64,000 nt of DNA from Candidatus Harrisonbacteria bacterium CG10_big_fil_rev_8_21_14_0_10_40_38 (GCA_002773535.1 PFAZ01000007.1:4675-68674); one strand, 5' to 3'. Shown: positions 1 to 15,188, counted from the first letter of the stretch. Numbers and translations: made by a program. Notes: generated by a model not told the origin, from the letters alone.

Positions 1-792
1 GACTCACAAAAAATCAAAACAAAGGAGCTTATTATAAGCTACGCAAATGCAGTAAATTCTTTAAACGGTAAATTCACCACCGGTGAAGACGTTGGTATCA
101 GCGAAGATGATGTTCAGCTCATGTTTAAGCACTCATCTTTTTTTATTGGCAAAAAAGGCGTTGCAGGTGACCCATCTCCTTATGCAGCGCTAAGCACATT
201 TTATTGCATACAAACTGCCCTAAGTGAAAGATTTGGAAGTGATTCACTAAAAGACAAAACAGTATCCGTAAAAGGCGTCGGTAAAGTTGGCGCAGAACTT
301 GTGCGTCTTCTTATAGAATCCGGCGCAAATATTATTGTGGCAGACATAAACAATCAGACGATAGATGAGCTAAAACAAAAATTCCCACAAATCAAAGTTG
401 CAGACGCAAACACAATCCACAAAGAAAAGGCAGATGTGTTCGCCCCATGCGCTATGGGTAAAGAGCTTACAAAAACTACTATCGAAGAAATCATTGCCCC
501 AATCATCTGCGGTAGTGCCAACAACCAACTCGAATCAGATGAAATAGGGGACGCGCTTTATGCAAAAAAAATTATGTATATTCCGGACTACGTCGCAAAT
601 GCAGGGGGTCTTATTGATGTCATAGATGAAAGAGAAGAAGGCGGTTATTCAAAAGAAAGAGTATTGTCTCGCATAGCAAACCTTAAAAATACCCTAAGTG
701 AGATATTCCAAAGAGCCAGAAAAGAAAATATTCCATTTCACCGCGTCGCGAATAAATTGGCTGAAGAGCGGTTTATGAATGCCAGAAAATAA
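1..792 (+). CDS. Leucine/valine dehydrogenase (Glu/Leu/Phe/Val dehydrogenase family), C-terminal NAD-binding part; the frame is open from base 1, so the 5' end lies outside the window
   Basis: GKVGAELVRLLIESGANIIVADIN Rossmann motif; ...DVFAPCAMG...ICGSANNQL...IPDYVANAGGLI... matches the Leu dehydrogenase C-terminal domain almost motif by motif. No stop in frame 1 upstream of 121. Confidence 0.8.
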   Translation, partial: DSQKIKTKELIISYANAVNSLNGKFTTGEDVGISEDDVQLMFKHSSFFIGKKGVAGDPSPYAALSTFYCIQTALSERFGSDSLKDKTVSVKGVGKVGAELVRLLIESGANIIVADINNQTIDELKQKFPQIKVADANTIHKEKADVFAPCAMGKELTKTTIEEIIAPIICGSANNQLESDEIGDALYAKKIMYIPDYVANAGGLIDVIDEREEGGYSKERVLSRIANLKNTLSEIFQRARKENIPFHRVANKLAEERFMNARK

Positions 793-794
793 AT

Positions 795-2312
795 ATGAAT
801 TTCAATCAAGACGACAAAAAAGCCGGTGAAATAACAAAGCTTATACATAGCAAGAAAAGCGCCTACTGGGAAAAAAGGCGTGAAACAAACGCGCTCGCTC
901 TTTTCAAAAAAGCTTCAAAAGAAGTTCCCGCCTATAAAGATTTTCTAAAAAAGAACAAGATAAAAACAGAAAAAATCAAATCATTTAAAGATTTTAATCT
1001 CATACCAACATTCAGCAAAAAAACCTATCTAAAGGATTATCCTCTAGAAAAAGTTGCATGGGACGGAAATTTAAATAAACCCCTCATCTATACGTCGACA
1101 TCGGGATCAACCGGAGAGCCTTTTTATTTTCCAAGAGAAAACAAACTAGATTGGGAATATTCCGTAATGATCGATTGGTTTCTAAAGAACAGTTCATATA
1201 AATCAAACGGACCGGTTTTAGTAATCATAGGTTTTGGCATGGGTGTGTGGATCGGTGGGCTTATCACATACAAAGCATTTGAAATTTCCGCCCAAAGAAG
1301 CAAGATTCCGATTTCGATAATCACCCCGGGAATAAACAAGGGGGAAATATTTAAAGCTTTCCGAAACCTATCACCTCACTACAAGGAGACTATTCTTGTA
1401 ATGTATCCTCCTCTCATGAAAGACGTGCTGGATGAAGCGGCAACACAAGGAATAAATCTCAAAAAATTAAACATCAGGCTTCTGACCGCAGCCGAGACAT
1501 ATACGGAAAAATTCAGAGATTATATAGCAAGAAAAACAGGAATCAAAAATGTCTATCGCGACACGTTAAATATTTATGGCACGGCAGATATTGGCGCCAT
1601 GGCTTGGGAAACGCCGACTTCTATTCTTGTACGCCGCCTAGCCATGCATTCAAACAAACTTTTCAAAGATATTTTCGGCCCAATTGAAAAAACGCCCACT
1701 CTCGCCCAATATAATCCGGAGTTCATAACTTTCGAATCTGTAAACGGAGAAATTGTATTAACTGGAAATAATACAATTCCTCTTATAAGATACGCTGTTG
1801 GCGATCACGGAGGGGTACTTTCATTTAATGAAATAAAAACAAAAATAGAATCACACGGCTTCGACTTTAAAGAAGAAGCGAAAAAAGCCGGCATAGAAGA
1901 TGCGATAACGGAGCTTCCATTTGTATATGTTTATGAAAGAAACGATTTTTCAACCACTCTCTATGGCGCGCAGATTTACCCTGAAATTATCAGAGAAACT
2001 CTTCTTGCAAAACCGATAACAAAATTTCTAACAGGAAAATTTACCCTACTTACAAAATACGACAAAAAACAAAACCAATATCTTGAAATAAATCTCGAGA
2101 CAAAAAAGAATAAAAAAATATCATCCGTTTTTAAGAAAAATGTTTTGATGAGAATTGTAACAGACTTAAGGGCAAAAAATTCAGAATTCAGAGAGCTTAC
2201 AAATCATTTTCATAAGAGAATATACCCAAAACTTGTTTTCTGGTGCTACGAACATCCGCTATACTTCAAACCAGGCATCAAACAAAAATGGGTCAAAAAA
2301 GGAGGAGATTAA
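795..2312 (+). CDS. Adenylate-forming enzyme, phenylacetate-CoA ligase (PaaK) / coenzyme F390 synthetase-like
   Basis: IYTSTSGSTGEPFYFP matches the PaaK/F390-synthetase AMP-binding P-loop (TSGTTGxP). Size ~500 aa. Confidence 0.55.
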   Translation: MNFNQDDKKAGEITKLIHSKKSAYWEKRRETNALALFKKASKEVPAYKDFLKKNKIKTEKIKSFKDFNLIPTFSKKTYLKDYPLEKVAWDGNLNKPLIYTSTSGSTGEPFYFPRENKLDWEYSVMIDWFLKNSSYKSNGPVLVIIGFGMGVWIGGLITYKAFEISAQRSKIPISIITPGINKGEIFKAFRNLSPHYKETILVMYPPLMKDVLDEAATQGINLKKLNIRLLTAAETYTEKFRDYIARKTGIKNVYRDTLNIYGTADIGAMAWETPTSILVRRLAMHSNKLFKDIFGPIEKTPTLAQYNPEFITFESVNGEIVLTGNNTIPLIRYAVGDHGGVLSFNEIKTKIESHGFDFKEEAKKAGIEDAITELPFVYVYERNDFSTTLYGAQIYPEIIRETLLAKPITKFLTGKFTLLTKYDKKQNQYLEINLETKKNKKISSVFKKNVLMRIVTDLRAKNSEFRELTNHFHKRIYPKLVFWCYEHPLYFKPGIKQKWVKKGGD

Positions 2313-2329
2313 GAATATCTACCAAAAAT

Positions 2330-3457
2330 ATGGAAAATATAAAAACCGTTTGGCAACCAGTTAAAGTCAGTAAAAAAGATATAGATAAACTAAAAGAAGA
2401 ACATCCAGAACTTCTAGTTATAGACGAAACAAAAAGAAATCTTGAAGAATTATTTCTATTACGTAACCCAAAATATAAATTCGACAAAAATTATCACGAA
2501 GAATTCGAATCTTTTTATAAAGAATACAACTCAGAAAGTTTTGGAGAATGGTTCCATTTTTCATGGATAAATAGTGTTGTCCGCTTCTTTCCTGAGGACT
2601 TACACCAGGAATTACGTACAGGCAGAAATAAATACCTAATTTCAAAGGATGAGCAAGACAAGTTTTATAACTCCACTGTTGCCTTTTGTGGTATGAGCGT
2701 GGGAAGTCATATCGCGATAGTTACAGCTATGACCGGAGGCGCAAAACATATGAAACTCGCAGATCCAGATGCTCTTTCTGGTGACAATTTAAATCGTGTG
2801 AGGTTGGGCTTTCAAAACGTTGGTATTAACAAAACAATTCTTGTTGCAAGACAAGTATATGAAATAAATCCATATGCAGAAATTGAAATATATACAGACG
2901 GCATAACAGAAGAAAATGCCAATCAGATATTAGAAGACGTAGATATTATCGTAGAAGAAATGGACAGTATGTACTGGAAATTAAAAACCAGAGAACTTGC
3001 GCGTGCTAGAGGAATTTCGGTCATTATGGGTACAGACAACGGAGACGGTGCAATCGTCGACATAGAAAGATATGACATAAACCCAGACCTCCCTATATTA
3101 AATGGACTAGCCAAGGGTTTAAGTGCTGAAAGGTTAAAAAATATGCCAGCAAAAGATTTGCCAAAGGTTGCGGGTAAAATTGCAGGCGCCAACCTAGTTG
3201 TTCCCAAAATGCTTTATTCCGTATCTGAGGTGGGGAAGTCTCTATATTCGTGGCCTCAACTCGGTAGTGCTGCAAACATGTGCGGTTCATTAGGCGCAAT
3301 GCTTATAAGGAGGATCGTAAATAAAGACAAGAATATTAAATCTAAAAGGTATTCAGTAAATCCCGACGCAATTTTTGAATCGGACTACAAACGCAAATGG
3401 TTTTCTCGCAAAATCGAATTTATCAAATTTATCCGCAAAATGATGAAACAGGAATAA
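2330..3457 (+). CDS. ThiF/MoeB-family E1-like adenylyltransferase with ~100-aa N-terminal extension
   Basis: RTGRNKYLI...VAFCGMSVGSHIAIV nucleotide-binding loop typical of ThiF/MoeB/E1, followed by the DPDAL...N..R region. Start moved from the track's 2243 to the ATG at 2330 to avoid a 70-nt overlap with the upstream gene. Confidence 0.5.
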   Translation: MENIKTVWQPVKVSKKDIDKLKEEHPELLVIDETKRNLEELFLLRNPKYKFDKNYHEEFESFYKEYNSESFGEWFHFSWINSVVRFFPEDLHQELRTGRNKYLISKDEQDKFYNSTVAFCGMSVGSHIAIVTAMTGGAKHMKLADPDALSGDNLNRVRLGFQNVGINKTILVARQVYEINPYAEIEIYTDGITEENANQILEDVDIIVEEMDSMYWKLKTRELARARGISVIMGTDNGDGAIVDIERYDINPDLPILNGLAKGLSAERLKNMPAKDLPKVAGKIAGANLVVPKMLYSVSEVGKSLYSWPQLGSAANMCGSLGAMLIRRIVNKDKNIKSKRYSVNPDAIFESDYKRKWFSRKIEFIKFIRKMMKQE

Positions 3458-3503
3458 ATTTTATTGAAGCGGTATAACTTCAAAAATGCTATAATAACTC
3501 AAT

Positions 3504-4571
3504 ATGGAGAATATTCGAGTGAATGTAGAAGAAATTCTAAGAAATTCAATAAATGCACCATCTGGCAGCAACTCTCAGCCATGGAAATTTTTAGTAAAAG
3601 GAAGCGAAATTTACATACTCGCTTTTCCAGAAAATGATCATCCAATATTAAATTATAGATCACGGGGAACGTGGATAGCTCATGGCGCACTTATCGAAAA
3701 CATCATTATCGCTGCATCAAAATATGCTTATAAAGCAACCCCAATGATTTTTCCATATGATCCCAAAACGCATATAATTGCAAAAATTAAACTCGAAAAA
3801 TCAGAAGATATAGCAGTAAATCCGTTATTTGAAATACTTTCGAAGAGAACAACAAATAGAAAAATTTATAAAAAAGAAAAATTAAATGAAGACCAAAAAA
3901 ATGCCATCATTGGTACAATAGGGGGAAATAATAATATTGTATTCAAGCTAATAGAAGATCGGGAAAAAATTAACAAGATTGGCAATGCAGTTAGTGCGAA
4001 CGAAATCGTAACTCTCGAAAATAAGAAACTTCATAAATTATTTTTTAATGAAGTAATTTGGACCGAAAAAGAAAACAAAAAAAATCCAAAAGGTATTTTT
4101 TTGAAAACAATGGAATTTAAACCACCGCAAAAACTCGTTTTTAAATTACTTAGAAATTGGAATGTTATGAAAATTGCAAATAAAATAAAATTTGCCCGTA
4201 TAATTGCAAAAGGAAACGGTAAAGGATATGCATCTTGTGCAGCAATGGGAGTGATTGCGGTTGATAATAATGATAATGATTTTATTGAAGCAGGAAGAAT
4301 TTTAGAGAGAATGTGGTTAGAGGCAACAAAAATGAATTTAAGTTTTCATTTAATAACAGGTATATTTTTCTATTGGCAAGCAATAAAATTAGGCAATTCA
4401 AACATTTTAAATAAAGAACATCAAGAAATTATTGAAAATGCATATAAAGAAACAGAAGAGTCAAGTGGTATAAACGATAAAATTATAACCATAGTCTGCA
4501 GAATAGGAAAAGATGGAGAGCCGACAGGGATATCTACTAAACTCCCTCCAGACATAGAATATATCAGTTAA
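3504..4571 (+). CDS. Nitroreductase-superfamily protein, double-length (SagB/McbC-like dehydrogenase candidate)
   Basis: N-terminal SGSNSQPWKF motif of the nitroreductase fold. A second nitroreductase-like half (GKGYASCAAMGVIAV...ERMWLEATKMNLSFH) follows. 355 aa. Confidence 0.5.
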   Translation: MENIRVNVEEILRNSINAPSGSNSQPWKFLVKGSEIYILAFPENDHPILNYRSRGTWIAHGALIENIIIAASKYAYKATPMIFPYDPKTHIIAKIKLEKSEDIAVNPLFEILSKRTTNRKIYKKEKLNEDQKNAIIGTIGGNNNIVFKLIEDREKINKIGNAVSANEIVTLENKKLHKLFFNEVIWTEKENKKNPKGIFLKTMEFKPPQKLVFKLLRNWNVMKIANKIKFARIIAKGNGKGYASCAAMGVIAVDNNDNDFIEAGRILERMWLEATKMNLSFHLITGIFFYWQAIKLGNSNILNKEHQEIIENAYKETEESSGINDKIITIVCRIGKDGEPTGISTKLPPDIEYIS

Positions 4572-4583
4572 AATAAAAAAGTA

Positions 4584-6257
4584 ATGCAAGTAGTAAGAAA
4601 TTTGGATTTATTTTCGGTTGGGGTGGCAATAGCAGCAATTGCAATACTCGGTTTTGTTGCCTTCCTTAACAACAAAAAAAGCATAACAAATAAAACATTC
4701 TTTGCTTTTTCCATGGTTGCCGTCCTATGGAATGTAGCAAATTATCTTATTTTTCAGTTTGACTCTCCGGAAATAGCTTTATGGATTTTAAGATCAGTGA
4801 TATTTTTTGCGACATGGTATTGCTTTTTTATATTTCAATTATTTTTTGTTGCACCAGAAGAACAATACCAATTTCCCAAAATATACAAATTTGGTCTCAT
4901 ACCTATTGTCATAGCCGTTTCACTTTTAACACTCACCCCGTATGTCTTCAAAGAAGTCACAGCATTTGATGCGGGTAAGATTTCTAGTGTAGAAAATGGA
5001 CCTGGAATATTCATTTTTGGTGCTTTAGTAATAAGTCTTTTAGTGGGTGGAACTTCAATACTAATACACAAGATGAGAAATTCAGAAGGAATCGTAAAAA
5101 CTCATCTAAAATATATATATAGAGGAGCAATCGCAACATTTCTACTATATATTGTATTCAACTTCATATTGCCGGCTTTCTTTAATAATCCGTCAGCTAT
5201 ACCACTTGGAGCACTTTTCACATTCCCAATTGTAATGATGACAACATATGCAATTTTTAAACATCATTTGTTTAATGTAAAAATAATTGCAACTGAGTCA
5301 TTGGCGTTTTTTCTAGCTATTGTAACATTGTATGAAACAGTTTTTGCGGAAAACTTAACAATAATTATTCTCCGATCAGGAGTTTTCTTGCTTGTTTTAG
5401 CATTCAGTATTCTTTTAATTAGGAGTGTTCGACGAGAAGTCGAGCAACGTGAAAAACTTGAAGTGTTAACCCAACAACTCGAGACCACAAACGTAAAACT
5501 CCAAAAACTCGACCAGCTCAAGTCAGCTTTCTTAAGTTTTGCCGCTCATCAAGCAAAGGGTCCAATAAACAACGTAAAAGGTTACGCAAGCCTCATCGAA
5601 GACGGTTCCTTTGGGGAGGTGCCTCAGGAAGTTAAAGAAAAAGCTCTACGAATAAAAACGATTGCAGATGATACATTAATTCTTCTCGGAAATCTCCTCG
5701 ACATGAGAAAAATAGAAGAGGGTACCTTCTTTAAGGAATTTAAATATGAAGAAGTAAACATTGTAGATTTCGTACAAAAACTAATAGAAGAGTACAAAGT
5801 TGGCATGACACTTCGTGGAAAGCCCGATCTCGAACTTTCGTTTGAATCATCCGCTCCAGAAATTAAAATAAAAATAGATCAGCTTAAAATCAGGCAGGTT
5901 GTGCAAAATCTTCTCGATAATGCAATCAAATACACGGATAAAGGGTTTGTGAAAGTGTCCGTAGCTGATGAACAATCGGCAAATCCAATGCAAAAAAACA
6001 CAAATCAATCACCAGTGGCTAATGGCTATGTGCTAATTACTATTCAAGACTCTGGCCGTGGTATATCAAAAGACCTTCAGGAAAAACTTTTCCACGAATT
6101 CGTTCGCGATGAAAAAACATCAAAAGAAATTCAAGGCACTGGCCTTGGTTTGTATCTTGCCAAGCAAATCGTTGACGCACACAAAGGCCAAATAACCGCC
6201 GCCTCAGAAGGCGAAGGCAAAGGAAGTACGTTTACGGTAAAGTTGGGGAAGATATAA
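4584..6257 (+). CDS. Sensor histidine kinase (polytopic membrane N-terminus, HisKA, HATPase_c)
   Basis: About 7 hydrophobic helices, then a coiled-coil, H-box LSFAAHQAKGPIN, N-box NLLDNAIKYT, and G-boxes DSGRGI / GTGLGLYLAK. Confidence 0.8.
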   Translation: MQVVRNLDLFSVGVAIAAIAILGFVAFLNNKKSITNKTFFAFSMVAVLWNVANYLIFQFDSPEIALWILRSVIFFATWYCFFIFQLFFVAPEEQYQFPKIYKFGLIPIVIAVSLLTLTPYVFKEVTAFDAGKISSVENGPGIFIFGALVISLLVGGTSILIHKMRNSEGIVKTHLKYIYRGAIATFLLYIVFNFILPAFFNNPSAIPLGALFTFPIVMMTTYAIFKHHLFNVKIIATESLAFFLAIVTLYETVFAENLTIIILRSGVFLLVLAFSILLIRSVRREVEQREKLEVLTQQLETTNVKLQKLDQLKSAFLSFAAHQAKGPINNVKGYASLIEDGSFGEVPQEVKEKALRIKTIADDTLILLGNLLDMRKIEEGTFFKEFKYEEVNIVDFVQKLIEEYKVGMTLRGKPDLELSFESSAPEIKIKIDQLKIRQVVQNLLDNAIKYTDKGFVKVSVADEQSANPMQKNTNQSPVANGYVLITIQDSGRGISKDLQEKLFHEFVRDEKTSKEIQGTGLGLYLAKQIVDAHKGQITAASEGEGKGSTFTVKLGKI

Positions 6258-6362: not shown

Positions 6363-6785
6363 ATGAGAAATACTAACATTACCCTCGCTCCGATTCCGCA
6401 ACTAGTTGTAGAACGATTGGCTAGCAATAGTGGCCTTCAGCCAGAAGACGCAGAAAGGCAAATGATTGAACTCGCCAAATTTCTTTCTGTCTGTGCAGAA
6501 TATCCCGGCGAGAATGCTCCATCTCGAGTAATTGACGATCTCTGGCATGTTTTTGTCTTATTCACCCGAGAATATCAAAGGTACTGCCAAGAAAACTTTG
6601 GTAAATTCATTCACCATACACCTACGGGATATGCTATGAACAATACTTATCAAAAAACACGTGCTCGTGCTCAAGAGATGTTTGGAGAACTTGATCAGGA
6701 CTTATGGCCGGAGAATGCAGGTGGGGCTGCAATCTGTAATGACTGTTGTGACGATAATCCCGGTGGCGAACATCCCCAAGGATGA
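6363..6785 (+). CDS. Hypothetical protein (DDLWHVFVLFTREYQRYC...HHTP motif, Cys-rich acidic C-terminus)
   Basis: ORF with a consensus SD and a higher local GC than its neighbours. Conserved-looking D-x2-W-H-x-F-x-L-x-T-x2-Y-x3-C core. C-terminus CNDCCDDNPGGEHPQG. Confidence 0.4.
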   Translation: MRNTNITLAPIPQLVVERLASNSGLQPEDAERQMIELAKFLSVCAEYPGENAPSRVIDDLWHVFVLFTREYQRYCQENFGKFIHHTPTGYAMNNTYQKTRARAQEMFGELDQDLWPENAGGAAICNDCCDDNPGGEHPQG

Positions 6786-6843
6786 CAAATAATGCAAAAG
6801 CATCAGTAGTTAATCAATTCCCAAGAGGCATAGAAAAATAATT

Positions 6844-7419
6844 CTATGTCTCTTTTTTTACTAAAAAATATTCAGCTACAACGGATAAAGGATTTTCCTT
6901 TGTAGGTTTGTAATATAAATCTATTCCTTTAATTATAAAATATTTAACAAGAATTTCTTCCAACTCATTCTGCTGAACAACTAAAAATGGCTTTTCAGCA
7001 TGCTTTATAATGACCTGTAATATAAACACACCATTCAGTTTAGAGGCTATAGTTGCTAAGTATTTTTCCTTATCCTCTATAAAAACCAAAGTTTTAGAAT
7101 CTATTATTAAATCATAGGCCCTATTTTTAAAGGAATATGTCGCCAACTCTTCAAGATCCCAAACATTAAAAAAAAGACCTGGTAAAGATGGTTGTTTAGA
7201 CGCTATTTTTATAGCTTCCTCGGAAAAATCTATTCCTTCTACCATAAATCCGTGTTGTGCTAACCACCGAGCAACCTCTCCTGTGCCGCAACCTAAATCC
7301 AGCGCAGAACCATTAAAAACACCTGACTTTTCTAGCCAGTTAGACAGGTTAATTTCCCGTCGACGCCACGGATTTTTCCCATCGCGATATGACTTATTCC
7401 ATTTTTCTTTAGATGCCAT
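6844..7419 (-). CDS. Class I SAM-dependent methyltransferase (TehB/TPMT-like size)
   Basis: Motif I LDLGCGTGEVARWL and motif post-I GIDFSEEAI. 191 aa. Confidence 0.65.
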   Translation of the reverse strand: MASKEKWNKSYRDGKNPWRRREINLSNWLEKSGVFNGSALDLGCGTGEVARWLAQHGFMVEGIDFSEEAIKIASKQPSLPGLFFNVWDLEELATYSFKNRAYDLIIDSKTLVFIEDKEKYLATIASKLNGVFILQVIIKHAEKPFLVVQQNELEEILVKYFIIKGIDLYYKPTKENPLSVVAEYFLVKKET

Positions 7420-8907: not shown

Positions 8908-11900
8908 GTGGAAAAAACAAAATTACCAATATTTTTTATAATTGTTTTTACTCTATTAAATTTCACAAATTTAACAAAAGCCTCTGGATATCTTTCTAAG
9001 CCATTATCTATTTCAACCGAATACAGCTGGTTTGATCATACATCTCCAAAATATGGCGCAAATCCAGATCAGTACATAAACATCATGACAAGATATGATG
9101 GGCAAGTTTTTACCGATGGAAGTTGTATACCATATGAATCTTGTTACGATGGGCACGAAGGAATTGATTTTGTAGCTCAAGAAGGCACACCAGTTTTTGC
9201 CTCTGAGTCGGGCAATATTTCAATTGGGTATTCAAATTTAGGGGGTAGATGGACAAAAATTTGGCACGCAAGCCAAAATCAAGCAACGTATTATGGCCAC
9301 CTAAAAGAATACGTAATTACCAGTGGTTATGTTTCCAAAGGAGATCTTATTGCATTCTCAGGAAAGACCGGAGTAGTAAGTGGTCCACACCTACACTTTG
9401 GTGTGTATACCGCCCAAAGTAATGGAATCCCTATCGACCCATATGGTTGGTCTGGGCCGAGCCAAGACCCATGGCAATATGATCTAGGATATCTTTGGGA
9501 TGACAATACGCCACCATCTTGGGGTGAAGAACATGTTTCAGGAAATATTACCCAAGACACTACTTGGATTTCAGGAAATACATATGTTGTAGATGGATCT
9601 ATAACTGTAAATGCTGGAGTTACTCTCACGATAAATCCAAACGTTGTTGTAAAATTTGCCCCAAGTAATGGGGTAATTTCTGTTTATGGAACTCTAAATG
9701 CAAACGGAAATGGATTTCAAAAAATCTACTTCACCTCAATAAAAGACGACTCCGTAGGAGGGGATACGAATCATGACGGATCTGCCACAGCCCCAGCTCC
9801 AGGAGATTACGAGGGAATCTATTTCACCGACGGCTCATCTGGTGGTTTTAGTAATTCTGTATTTCGCTACGGTGGTAAATTAAACTACTGGGCCCAAATC
9901 CCATATGGAGCAATGCGTATCTATGGAGGTGATGTCTCGGTATCAAACACAGAATTTAAAAGTAATATCTACGGAATTTATTATTACAACAACAATACCT
10001 CCGGTACACTTTCCATACAAAACTCCCAATTTGATGAAAATGGAGATTATGGTTTCTATGCAAATTCACCAAATGGCAGAACTCTAATTGTTGAAGATTC
10101 TATATTTGGCAATCACAATATCTCAGCAGGTAAAATCTCAGAAAAAATAAATTTTATCAACTCTGGTAACCACCCCATGTCCGGGGTTTCGACAGTATTT
10201 CATATAATGTACGGCAATGCTCCTGTAAACCAAACTTGGAACCCCGGCATACCTTTCTTAATCGAAAGCTATACAATCGATCAAGGAAGAAAAGTAACGA
10301 TAAATCCCGGCACAATAGTTAAATTTAGCCAAGATTCTTCGATTAATGTTTATGGTTCGTTACTCGCTTTAGGAGAAGCAAATAATAGGGTCTACCTTAC
10401 TTCAGCGAAAGACGACTCCGTGGGAGGTGACACAAACCACGACGGATCTATTACTTCTCCGGCAGCAGGAGATTACTACGGCATGTATTTTTACGAAGGG
10501 TCAGTATCCGCTCTGCAAAATACTTCAATTAAATATGGTGGTAAATTCAACTACTGGTCACCAATTCCATATGGAGTAATACGTATTTATGGAGGACATT
10601 TGGTAATTCAACAAAGTGAAATAAACAGCAACAACCACGGAATATATCAAGTTGGAGACACAACTCTATATACCGAGTCATCAATGATTCAAAATAATAT
10701 TGGTCATGGGCTATATATTTTAAACTCAACAGGTATAGCAACCACAACTATCTTAAACAATGCATTTAACAATAATGAAAATAGCGATGCATACATCTCT
10801 GGAAAAACAATATTCGTAAATAGCGGCAATACCGGCGATGACTCAAGTAAGTTTATAATTTCCGGCCAAATAAGCTATGATCAAGTTTGGAATCCGGGTA
10901 TTCCATTTGTACTTAGTTACGTGTCTATTGATCAAAATAAAAAATTAACAATAAACCCTGGCACAATAGTAAAATTCAACCAAAGTTCCGCAATCAATGT
11001 TTATGGTTCCTTATTTGCTCTAGGTGAAGCAAATAATAAGGTCTACTTCACTTCGATAAAAGACGATACAGTCGGTGGAGACACTAACGGTGATGGATCC
11101 GCAACTTCACCGGCTCCAAGCGATTATCAAGGCATTTATTTTTTCGATGGATCCCATGGAGATATTAATTACGCAAACATTAGCTACGGAGGGGAATATA
11201 ACTATTGGTCAATTCATTATGGGGCATTGCGTATTGCAAATAGCGAAGTGTCAGTAAATAACAGTCTTTTCAAGAAGAATAGCTATGGTATATACATGTC
11301 ATATTCTGGATCAGTTTCAGTAAACAGGTCAGAGTTTGAAAGCAATGATTGTGGCGCGTGCATCTATGCGACACCAGCCACAGTTTCTTTTACAAATAAT
11401 GAATTTAATAACCAAAAAACATACGATATATTACTATCCGGCAATATTAATTTTATAAATAGCGGCAATACAGGTATAAACACCAAAGGAATTTTGTTAT
11501 CAAACTTCACGCCAACGGAAAATCAAATTTTAAATCCAGGAGTGCCATATGTCGTTCAATATGTATTAATTTCATCCGGGAAACAGATAGATATAAAACC
11601 AAACACAATTCTAAAATTTGATGGCAACGGCGCAATAATCACATATGGAAATCTTAATATCAAAGGGCTACAAAACGGACCAGTATATTTAACTTCATTA
11701 AAAGACGACTCTCTTGGCGGTGATACGAATGGGGATAAGCTCGGAACATCTCCACGTGAAGGCGATTACCAAGGAATATTTTTCTACTCTGGAGCAACGG
11801 GTATGATTGAAAATGCCGTGATAAAATATGGCGGTAAGTATATTTATGGCGTCAGTCCACCATATGGAGTAATTAGAGTATATGATGGAACTCTAACTAT

Positions 11901-12162
11901 TCGTAAGAGCACCATAACAAAAAACAAATATGGAATCATGCAACAAGGCAATAATTCTCATACAACAATATCGTTAAGTTCGATAACCGATAACTTAGAT
12001 TATGGGTTCTATAGCTATCGTCCCAATACGGTAAACGCCGATCATAACTGGTGGGGTAGTGCAACTGGCCCATATAATCCAAATTCAAATCCAAACGGAC
12101 AAGGAGACAGGGTTTCCGATGACATCCAATACACTCCTTGGTTAACCAGTAATCCAAACTAA
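8908..12162 (+). CDS. Large secreted M23-family metallopeptidase fused to four tandem beta-helix-like repeat modules
   Basis: Signal/anchor MEKTKLPIFFIIVFTLLNF. M23 motifs HEGIDF and HLHFGVY (HxxxD / HxH). Four ~200-aa repeats, each with TINPGTIVKF...VYFTSIKDDSVGGDTN(H/G)DGSATSPAPGDYQGIYF...KYGG..NYW. C-terminal HNWWGSATGPYNP motif. Confidence 0.7.
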   Translation: MEKTKLPIFFIIVFTLLNFTNLTKASGYLSKPLSISTEYSWFDHTSPKYGANPDQYINIMTRYDGQVFTDGSCIPYESCYDGHEGIDFVAQEGTPVFASESGNISIGYSNLGGRWTKIWHASQNQATYYGHLKEYVITSGYVSKGDLIAFSGKTGVVSGPHLHFGVYTAQSNGIPIDPYGWSGPSQDPWQYDLGYLWDDNTPPSWGEEHVSGNITQDTTWISGNTYVVDGSITVNAGVTLTINPNVVVKFAPSNGVISVYGTLNANGNGFQKIYFTSIKDDSVGGDTNHDGSATAPAPGDYEGIYFTDGSSGGFSNSVFRYGGKLNYWAQIPYGAMRIYGGDVSVSNTEFKSNIYGIYYYNNNTSGTLSIQNSQFDENGDYGFYANSPNGRTLIVEDSIFGNHNISAGKISEKINFINSGNHPMSGVSTVFHIMYGNAPVNQTWNPGIPFLIESYTIDQGRKVTINPGTIVKFSQDSSINVYGSLLALGEANNRVYLTSAKDDSVGGDTNHDGSITSPAAGDYYGMYFYEGSVSALQNTSIKYGGKFNYWSPIPYGVIRIYGGHLVIQQSEINSNNHGIYQVGDTTLYTESSMIQNNIGHGLYILNSTGIATTTILNNAFNNNENSDAYISGKTIFVNSGNTGDDSSKFIISGQISYDQVWNPGIPFVLSYVSIDQNKKLTINPGTIVKFNQSSAINVYGSLFALGEANNKVYFTSIKDDTVGGDTNGDGSATSPAPSDYQGIYFFDGSHGDINYANISYGGEYNYWSIHYGALRIANSEVSVNNSLFKKNSYGIYMSYSGSVSVNRSEFESNDCGACIYATPATVSFTNNEFNNQKTYDILLSGNINFINSGNTGINTKGILLSNFTPTENQILNPGVPYVVQYVLISSGKQIDIKPNTILKFDGNGAIITYGNLNIKGLQNGPVYLTSLKDDSLGGDTNGDKLGTSPREGDYQGIFFYSGATGMIENAVIKYGGKYIYGVSPPYGVIRVYDGTLTIRKSTITKNKYGIMQQGNNSHTTISLSSITDNLDYGFYSYRPNTVNADHNWWGSATGPYNPNSNPNGQGDRVSDDIQYTPWLTSNPN
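9540..12000 (+). repeat. Four intragenic tandem repeats (~580 nt / ~195 aa each) inside the M23 gene
   Basis: The amino-acid block KDDSVGGDTNxDGS(A/I)T(A/S)P(A/R)xGDY(E/Q)G(I/M)(Y/F)F recurs at aa ~285, ~495, ~715 and ~935. Confidence 0.5.
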
Positions 12163-13270: not shown

Positions 13271-13439
13271 GGGTAATGCTCTGTAAAGATACAAAAAAGC
13301 CAGATTTGACCGACCATTAACAAAAAATGCAGCAAAGTTGAAAGTTATATAGTTGTCCCAATTTATTTTAAGGAGGTATTCAAGAATAATGCACCTGCTT
13401 TCTTTTGAAAGTTTTTGCATTATTAGTGATTACTTTCAT

Positions 13440-15015
<1,576 letters not shown>

Positions 15016-15188
15016 AATTAAGCTAAGTCGAACATACTTTTTTATGTTTAGTGCAGTACTGCAATCTTTTTATAGGTTCAGGGAAGCAAAAAGTGTTGAT
15101 CGAGGAGCTTTAAGTCTCGATTCGTGTATTAGAGAAATCAAATACGCGTAAATTGGGACAACTATATAGACTTCAACAAAAAGCACAA

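Follow-up and report, generated by a model that had tools for sequence, protein, structure and literature searches.

A candidate oxazolone operon with a PaaK-fold ligase in the Candidate Phyla Radiation

What could an adenylating enzyme, a ThiF/E1-like protein and a nitroreductase-like flavoprotein, encoded back to back, make together in a bacterium of the Candidate Phyla Radiation (CPR; Patescibacteria)? The question is raised by positions 795-4571 of a 64,000-nt stretch of DNA from Candidatus Harrisonbacteria, hereafter the window, in whose coordinates all positions are given. A first-pass annotation had read the three genes, which we call g1, g2 and g3, as a possible thiazole/oxazole (TOMM)-like system without the YcaO component. 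We propose, with moderate confidence, that they belong to a five-gene CPR operon in which g2 and g3 form a split oxazolone synthetase and g1 makes the N-acyl amino acid without coenzyme A (CoA). The genes are as follows:

1..792, plus strand: amino-acid dehydrogenase gene, 3' part (Pfam ELFV_dehydrog, E 7e-19)
795..2312, plus strand: g1, divergent PaaK-fold adenylate-forming ligase, 505 aa (AlphaFold2 model with Foldseek, motifs)
2330..3457, plus strand: g2, ThiF-like cyclase half of the predicted split oxazolone synthetase, 375 aa (NF005901, Pfam ThiF)
3504..4571, plus strand: g3, flavin-dependent oxidase (FDO) half, with an Acg-like monomeric double nitroreductase fold, 355 aa (NF011424, NF005901, NF047509)
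4584..6257, plus strand: sensor histidine kinase with an N-terminal seven-transmembrane (7TM) sensor region, 557 aa (Pfam HisKA_7TM, E 2e-10; HisKA; HATPase_c)

All three open reading frames (ORFs) of the cluster were present on the plus strand where they had been placed, and only the start of g2 needed correction. This gene sits in an ORF spanning 2243-3457, and its true start is ATG 2330 rather than GTG 2243, because the 375-aa database protein P0121 matches it with 100% identity and M1 does not vary among 24 homologues. The dehydrogenase gene starts upstream of the window and encodes 373 aa in the source contig. The packing of the five genes is operon-like, with gaps of 2 nt (dehydrogenase-g1), 17 nt (g1-g2), 46 nt (g2-g3) and 12 nt (g3-kinase), and the sole strong terminator-like hairpin of the cluster stretch (13-bp stem) lies past the kinase at 6823-6854.

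Kinship of g2 and g3 with oxazolone synthetases

Rv1355c is TrzS, a fusion of a ThiF cyclase and a flavin oxidase that converts N-acyl amino acids into oxazolones (PMC12856293). In work from 2021 to 2025, ATP-dependent cyclisation and desaturation by flavin mononucleotide (FMN) and O2 of N-acyl Trp, Tyr or Phe have been demonstrated biochemically for TrzS, OxzB and TyzB/TyzC (PMC12856293, PMC10404671, 10.1101/2020.06.11.147165). OxzB of Pseudoalteromonas rubra performs the same chemistry as TrzS in a fused form (10.1101/2020.06.11.147165), and TyzB/TyzC of Mycobacterium tuberculosis in a split form (PMC10404671). Likewise, clusters of split ThiF, nitroreductase and N-acyl amino acid synthase genes underlie N-acyl-dehydrotyrosines in three phyla (PMC12479983). 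The earlier view that an E1-like protein and an FMN dehydrogenase occur together in no described system has been overtaken, since this is the ThiF-FDO pairing of OxzB, TyzB/TyzC and TrzS.

The proteins g2 and g3 match the N- and C-terminal halves of the Rv1355c-family profile (NCBIfam NF005901; 722 positions, full-length cut-off 476 bits), far ahead of the MoeB, ThiF, TcdA and NfsA/B models. Residues 15-350 of g2 align with positions 24-340 of the profile (E 3.5e-78, 263.6 bits), compared with 75.7 bits for the next-best ThiF model, and g3 covers positions 377-706 (E 7e-50) and also matches NF011424 (E 5e-52). The scores of g3 for ThiF-fused FDO families, 170-177 bits, exceed the 119 bits for the Acg family of FMN oxidoreductases (NF047509, E 2e-34). 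When compared with a Rhodococcus qingshengii 'Rv1355c family protein', g2 shows 33% identity (E 1e-46) and g3 shows 22% identity to its C-terminal half (E 2e-20). The pairing of ThiF and nitroreductase also occurs on plasmid pDV of Nitratidesulfovibrio vulgaris Hildenborough (D. vulgaris below), within a 989-aa triple fusion with FeeM (L081:5159-8128). This sulfate reducer may thus hold a whole oxazolone pathway in one protein, and the fusion shows that the step before ThiF is N-acylation. The fusion protein is annotated only as 'ThiF family adenylyltransferase', and its gene sits among PEP-CTERM/XrtA exosortase-system genes.

We aligned CPR g2/g3 pairs with the Rhodococcus Rv1355c-family protein and the D. 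vulgaris fusion. The ThiF part of this alignment contains an invariant family-specific G-x-SVGS loop, LADxD, NLNR, a Lys (K168) and D212, and the FMN motif APSGxNxQPW is invariant across the CPR, Rhodococcus and D. vulgaris proteins. In g2 the residues for ATP binding and adenylation are kept, D212 among them. This residue pairs with D212 of the Rhodococcus protein, and by motif position only, in an alignment of CPR, Rhodococcus and D. vulgaris sequences, we equate it with Asp217 of TrzS, an enzyme that is inactive when this Asp is changed to Ala (PMC12856293). The protein g3 is the predicted C-alpha/C-beta desaturase.

Public databases label such proteins 'molybdopterin/thiamine biosynthesis adenylyltransferase', 'tRNA threonylcarbamoyladenosine dehydratase' and 'phenylacetate-CoA ligase', and these labels would favour a set of unrelated housekeeping neighbours, namely a MoeB/ThiF enzyme for sulfur-carrier activation, a detoxifying nitroreductase and a catabolic pair of PaaK and Leu dehydrogenase. 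However, the MoeB, ThiF and TcdA equivalog scores of g2 are far below their cut-offs, and g2 has two cysteines as read from the sequence (C120 and C318), with no CxxC pair. We also found no ThiS/MoaD-like small ubiquitin-like gene in the cluster. A plain MoeB/ThiF or TcdA identity for g2 was ruled out by these equivalog scores and the lack of CxxC zinc motifs, and an ordinary NfsA/NfsB nitroreductase identity for g3 by a best E-value of 0.06.

The TOMM-like reading supposed that the E1-like protein docks a ribosomal peptide, that backbone activation, the task of YcaO, falls to the ligase and that the flavoprotein oxidises azolines, as in the biosynthesis of a ribosomally synthesised and post-translationally modified peptide (RiPP). 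The analogy is superficial at the domain level: an E1-like protein, a nitroreductase-fold FMN enzyme and an extension of about 100 aa on g2. The extension is real, because the Pfam ThiF match begins at residue 103 (residues 103-259, E 2.7e-18), so g2 was correctly described as an extended ThiF/E1-like protein. It is a family trait rather than an add-on, because it falls inside the Rv1355c-family (TrzS) profile match. Its proposed role as a peptide clamp or RiPP recognition element (RRE) was not supported: in the AlphaFold2 model of g2 (predicted local distance difference test, pLDDT, 85) the extension has the order beta-alpha-beta-alpha-alpha-beta-beta-alpha, unlike the beta3-alpha3 winged helix of RREs, and the structural matches of g2 to MccB and PaaA do not cover it, a judgement made on topology without a domain-level fold search. 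The two-lobed nitroreductase fold described for the 355-aa g3 was retained, but g3 is of the Acg/FDO type (NF047509, NF005901) and not of the SagB/McbC type. No SagB-type model appeared among the NCBIfam matches of g3, and no TOMM cyclodehydratase or docking model among those of g2 or g3, even at E<=10.

Two observations of the first-pass annotation proved correct and speak against its own TOMM framing. YcaO is missing from the Pfam and NCBIfam scans of the cluster genes, from the source contig's precomputed Pfam labels and from the recurrent neighbour families, and there is no precursor-peptide ORF, as the ORFs of 20-80 aa in 600-4700 all lie inside the large genes. The gaps between cluster genes are short (2-46 nt here; medians of -4 to +16 bp across other loci, with 4-6 bp at most junctions), and they therefore leave no room for a peptide gene. 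The TOMM reading is thus largely refuted, and we assign it next to no probability. Its fallback, that the substrate could be a small molecule, is supported.

An alternative is a pathway to a dehydro-diketopiperazine or another cyclodipeptide. Here, g1 would ligate an amino acid to a second one or to a 2-oxo acid, the ThiF-like enzyme would activate the carboxylate at the C-terminal end so that the N-terminal amine can attack it, and g3 would act like AlbA. AlbA-type (cyclic dipeptide oxidase) C-alpha/C-beta dehydrogenation is found in the same superfamily (10.1101/2020.06.11.147165), and the amino-acid-metabolising neighbours of the cluster fit an all-amino-acid product. However, g3 scores best with the TrzS-type ThiF-fused FDO families and not with other nitroreductase models. 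We know of no precedent for a ThiF-like diketopiperazine cyclase and regard this pathway as decidedly improbable.

The PaaK-fold ligase g1

The protein encoded by g1 is 100% identical to the NCBI entry 'hypothetical protein COU07_02550'. No Pfam family matched it above cut-off, and the NCBIfam PaaK/F390 models gave weak matches, with 45.5 bits for TIGR02155 against a cut-off of 646.3. The AlphaFold2 model of g1 (pLDDT 85) found PaaK1 (2Y27) as its best Foldseek match (E 4e-20, TM-scores 0.67/0.78), and BT_0428, NatL2 (E 2e-15), ClxA (E 1.5e-14) and the 2-hydroxyisobutyryl-CoA ligase HCL were among the further matches. The P-loop TSGSTGEP is invariant or nearly so in 21 homologues, and the invariant residues include TSGST..P, YG.A..G, R332-Y333..G336-D337, E381-R382.D384 and K496. 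A profile alignment of g1 with PaaK1, PaaK2 and BT_0428 spans the P-loop and A8. Taken together, the model and motifs support a PaaK-type ANL fold with two domains, the P-loop, A5/A7/A8-like motifs and a C-terminal catalytic Lys, in agreement with the first-pass description of a PaaK-like adenylating enzyme. Identity with the phenylacetate-CoA ligase PaaK equivalog itself was ruled out by the score for TIGR02155, and there are no paa genes nearby.

Some PaaK-type ligases are known to work without CoA. NatL2 (nataxazole) and ClxA (closoxazole) condense two acids in a CoA-free manner ahead of a ring-closing enzyme (PMC7204872, PMC9400959), and a CoA-independent condensing role is therefore precedented in the fold of g1. 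An exhaustive phmmer search over 1.84 billion representatives placed 485 clusters (50% identity) in the g1 family at E<=1e-30, so that g1 stands for a large uncharacterised branch of PaaK enzymes.

A large sister family of g1 (about 453 aa, 31% identity, annotated 'phenylacetate-CoA ligase family') occurs in Streptosporangiales and other Actinomycetota. We inspected five of its loci (L084:8971-10434, L085, L086, L089 and L090) and found no ThiF or FDO gene near the g1 relative in these five. An FAD_binding_3 monooxygenase and a TetR- or PadR-type regulator adjoin in 2/5 loci, histidine kinases and response regulators are near in 3/5, and the contexts otherwise vary.

Conservation and gene fusions in Patescibacteria

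Scanning one genome per species yielded 269 relatives of g1, and the best 80 loci were studied over +/-10 kb around g1. All 80 are from metagenome-assembled genomes of Patescibacteria, judged by title or content, and the pathway is kept across Paceibacteria, Wolfe-, Lipton-, Magasanik-, Roizman- and Woesebacteria. As judged by tblastn and ORF clustering, the recurring order is [receiver-only response regulators]-[amino-acid dehydrogenase]-g1-ThiF-FDO-[7TM histidine kinase]. Among the 44 loci with enough flank, ThiF is present in 41, FDO in 40, a histidine kinase downstream of FDO in 40, an amino-acid/2-oxo-acid enzyme in 27 and a response regulator in 19; over all 80 loci, tblastn found a g2 relative in 77, and receiver-only response regulators occur in 30. 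The triad is thus conserved in other genomes, and the association of g1 with ThiF, FDO and the kinase is far beyond chance. ThiF precedes an adjacent FDO in 34 loci and follows it in 11, and in some loci unrelated housekeeping genes, such as those for a nucleotidyltransferase or a NUDIX hydrolase, separate g2 from g3. When distant homologues of g2 were used as the starting point, the look-ups recovered the same operon, including the kinase, which typically shows 34-52% identity by tblastn over nearly its full length with the transmembrane region.

The dehydrogenase belongs to the Leu/Val/Phe/Trp-type amino-acid dehydrogenases. Its full-length orthologue L001:8895-9968 is closest to the leucine dehydrogenases 3VPX (E 3e-84) and 6ACF (E 1e-83) and is also near the Trp dehydrogenase 5B37 (E 2e-75). 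The gene directly upstream of g1 encodes this dehydrogenase in 33/80 loci, and in 7 others its place is taken by an aminotransferase of the IlvE or HisC type; the IlvE-type branched-chain aminotransferase scores 366 bits against a cut-off of 279. This swap is a non-orthologous displacement of the amino-acid/2-oxo-acid step.

The phmmer search with g1 also brought up natural fusions of these genes in other Patescibacteria:

P0369, 847 aa: dehydrogenase + g1 fusion, identical sequence in four assemblies
P0379, 863 aa: g1 + ThiF fusion, one contig
P0471, 880 aa: ThiF + g1 fusion, one contig
P0496, 1242 aa: dehydrogenase + g1 + ThiF fusion, two assemblies

In P0496, the segments show 40% identity to the window dehydrogenase and 35% to g2, and the g2 match spans the N-terminal extension. 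Two of the four fusion proteins recur with identical sequence in independent assemblies. The fusions bind the dehydrogenase, the ligase and ThiF into one pathway, in the order of the operon. The suggested links to the Leu dehydrogenase upstream and to the histidine kinase downstream were both supported, the former being a conserved neighbour that is even fused to g1 and the latter a conserved neighbour as well. The grouping of unrelated housekeeping genes is contradicted by the fusions, and synteny across many CPR lineages likewise argues for one pathway; we consider that explanation very improbable.

Further observations concern the composition and range of the operon. The 4785-bp contig L083 (JBLNFG010000771.1, 60.5% G+C, binned as 'Myxococcales bacterium') carries the C-terminal part of g1, ThiF and FDO, whose products are 43-54% identical to those of the window, and is either a mis-binned CPR contig or an instance of the operon outside CPR. 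The dehydrogenase has a gene for tryptophanyl-tRNA synthetase (TIGR00233, 276 bits, above cut-off) as its direct upstream neighbour in L001 and L003 and two genes upstream in L007, and in L051 such a gene comes right behind the kinase; the best NCBIfam match of the dehydrogenase is the Trp dehydrogenase ScyB, below cut-off. These two features may hint at the amino acid used or may be a coincidence. Methyltransferase-like genes occur sporadically in or beside the operon (L045:13713-14627, L048, L070, L073, one further locus and the window). They include an unassigned protein of about 305 aa between FDO and the kinase, a CMAS-like protein between the dehydrogenase and g1 and, in the window, a TPMT-like methyltransferase just after the cluster on the opposite strand (6844-7419, minus strand).

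The window contains other features beyond the kinase. A 140-aa ORF (6363-6785, plus strand; UCP032817-like, PF27765 by precomputed label) with a Cys/Asp-rich C terminus is not kept beside the operon in other loci and has weak matches only in L026 and L053. A 1084-aa protein (8908-12162, plus strand) combines an N-terminal M23 peptidase with several internally repeated beta-helix/NosD-like modules according to precomputed Pfam labels; it may act at the cell surface or as a lytic protein against a host. The window also has a complete bacterial 16S rRNA gene (13438-15024, plus strand; 1375 bits, model positions 1-1533 over 1587 nt) with insertions of about 50 nt. No 23S rRNA, 5S rRNA or tRNA was detected in the 64-kb window, and the rRNA arrangement there is unlinked.

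Proposed pathway and comparison with known systems

In the described oxazolone and N-acyl-dehydroamino-acid systems, the synthase gene is always adjacent to or fused with ThiF/FDO (PMC12856293, PMC12479983). We searched six-frame translations of the window and the 80 loci by phmmer with the D. vulgaris FeeM domain and a Rhodococcus protein, an unannotated 252-aa neighbour of the Rv1355c-family gene that is presumed to be TrzA-like. No FeeM/TrzA-like N-acyl amino acid synthase was found at E<=1 in the window or the 80 loci by this search of limited sensitivity, and no such family is among the recurrent neighbour families of the 80 loci; the constant gene of these loci is g1. The result bears on the alternative that g1 is an ordinary acyl-CoA ligase, for aryl-acetate or fatty acids, feeding an N-acyl amino acid synthase elsewhere, with g2 and g3 acting as in the known systems. 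This alternative draws on the closest solved relatives of g1 (PaaK1, BT_0428 and HCL), which are true CoA ligases, and on the inspected span of +/-10 kb around g1. However, the 80 loci contain no synthase candidate in the place where the described systems carry it, and the g1 + ThiF and dehydrogenase + g1 fusions are more in keeping with consecutive steps than with a detour by way of a free CoA thioester and an enzyme encoded apart. We therefore consider an ordinary acyl-CoA ligase unlikely, although less so than the other alternatives above.

Under the proposal of a split oxazolone synthetase supplied by g1, the pathway could run as follows. The dehydrogenase or aminotransferase would interconvert a hydrophobic amino acid and its 2-oxo acid, thereby providing one substrate of g1. 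The ligase would adenylate a carboxylic acid and then acylate an amino acid with it directly at the amino group, probably without CoA. Subsequently, g2 would adenylate the N-acyl amino acid's free alpha-carboxylate, upon which the amide oxygen would close the oxazol-5-one ring, and g3 with FMN would create a double bond between C-alpha and C-beta. The expected product is a 4-alkylidene-oxazolone, which hydrolysis would turn into an N-acyl-dehydroamino acid. CPR organisms are generally thought to import amino acids. We accordingly favour the 2-oxo acid as the acyl donor of g1, because a conserved deaminating enzyme would then supply something otherwise unavailable, and an amino acid as the supplied substrate is also possible. 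The conserved 7TM sensor of the kinase would suit a lipophilic ligand, and the kinase may sense the product or regulate the operon. We infer every chemical step, the substrates and the role of the kinase from homology, catalytic motifs, synteny and fusions, which are themselves directly observed.

Several points weigh against this proposal. The genome could hold a gene for an N-acyl amino acid synthase beyond the +/-10 kb examined. The substrate class could differ, because g2 and g3 show 33% and 22% identity to an Rv1355c-family protein and each alone scores below the 476-bit cut-off. Oxygen is consumed by the characterised FDOs, but many CPR habitats lack it, anoxic groundwater being the source of many CPR bacteria. 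The natural oxazolones known so far are built from aromatic amino acids, but the linked dehydrogenase and IlvE suggest branched-chain ones. Known PaaK-type condensing ligases use aromatic amino or hydroxy acids, not alpha-amino acids, and the exclusion of CoA by g1 is argued from its likeness to NatL2/ClxA. Finally, the g1 family is not intrinsically tied to ThiF/FDO chemistry, because its actinobacterial relatives lack ThiF/FDO neighbours.

The operon is apparently undescribed. The papers defining oxazolone systems mention neither CPR bacteria nor ligase partners, and full-text literature searches returned no description of this operon, of a CPR oxazolone or of a CPR ThiF-nitroreductase pair. 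What is known is the ThiF-FDO chemistry; what would be new is the ATP-dependent entry enzyme, the linked amino-acid/2-oxo-acid enzyme, the dedicated sensor kinase and the occurrence in a lineage of minimal metabolism. CPR bacteria are generally regarded as almost without biosynthetic capacity and as living on other cells. A small-molecule pathway kept across CPR lineages and wired to a kinase is unexpected for this reason, and its conservation suggests that the product matters for the CPR lifestyle. More speculatively, the operon may be a self-contained signalling module, in which a CoA-independent ligase of a new kind would join a 2-oxo acid or another acid to an amino acid, and the product would be turned into a reactive, lipophilic alkylidene-oxazolone sensed by the 7TM kinase and the receiver-only regulators. 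We think this an outside chance, but if true, ultra-small episymbionts would have their first pathway dedicated to a small-molecule signal or to an effector directed at the host. For enzymology, g1 would offer an alternative entry into oxazolone and N-acyl-dehydroamino-acid chemistry that may bypass acyl-CoA, and the fusion proteins P0369, P0379, P0471 and P0496 are ready-made constructs for biochemistry. The analysis also corrects the misleading public annotations as MoeB/ThiF, TcdA and phenylacetate-CoA ligase.

Among the closest known systems is the TrzA/TrzS (Rv1356c/Rv1355c) N-acyl tryptazolone pathway of M. tuberculosis, M. smegmatis and Rhodococcus (PMC12856293), which belongs to the same NCBIfam family NF005901 as g2/g3. 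TrzS shares with g2/g3 the G-x-SVGS loop, NLNR, the catalytic Asp, the FMN motif and the extension ahead of the ThiF core. However, TrzS is one fused protein of about 720 aa, whereas the CPR operon has two genes; its partner is the acyl-CoA-dependent N-acyltransferase TrzA instead of a PaaK-fold ligase, and its neighbours are cyclic di-GMP genes instead of an amino-acid dehydrogenase and a 7TM histidine kinase. The TyzA/TyzB/TyzC tyrazolone cluster and the NasY clusters (stieleriacines, thalassotalic acids and kyonggic acids) have separate ThiF and FDO genes, as in the CPR operon (PMC10404671, PMC12479983). They also share with it very short intergenic gaps, a small-molecule substrate and occasional methyltransferase tailoring genes; stieleriacine clusters carry a methyltransferase, and such genes are sporadic in the CPR operon. 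Unlike g2, TyzB (318 aa) has no long N-terminal extension, and all Tyz/NasY clusters contain an N-acyl amino acid synthase, which was not found in the CPR operon. The pairing of ThiF with nitroreductase is likewise found in OxzA/OxzB of P. rubra (10.1101/2020.06.11.147165) and in the D. vulgaris triple fusion. The donor of the OxzA/FeeM type is acyl-CoA or acyl carrier protein-bound, handled by a FeeM/GNAT-like fold, whereas in CPR the conserved and sometimes fused partner is an adenylate-forming enzyme. On the side of the ligase, NatL2/ClxA resemble g1 in the PaaK fold and in that an adenylating ligase forms an ester or amide before the next enzyme closes an oxazole-type ring. They differ in their low identity to g1 (14-18%), in their aminohydroxybenzoate substrates and in their cyclase, which is an amidohydrolase and not a ThiF-like protein.

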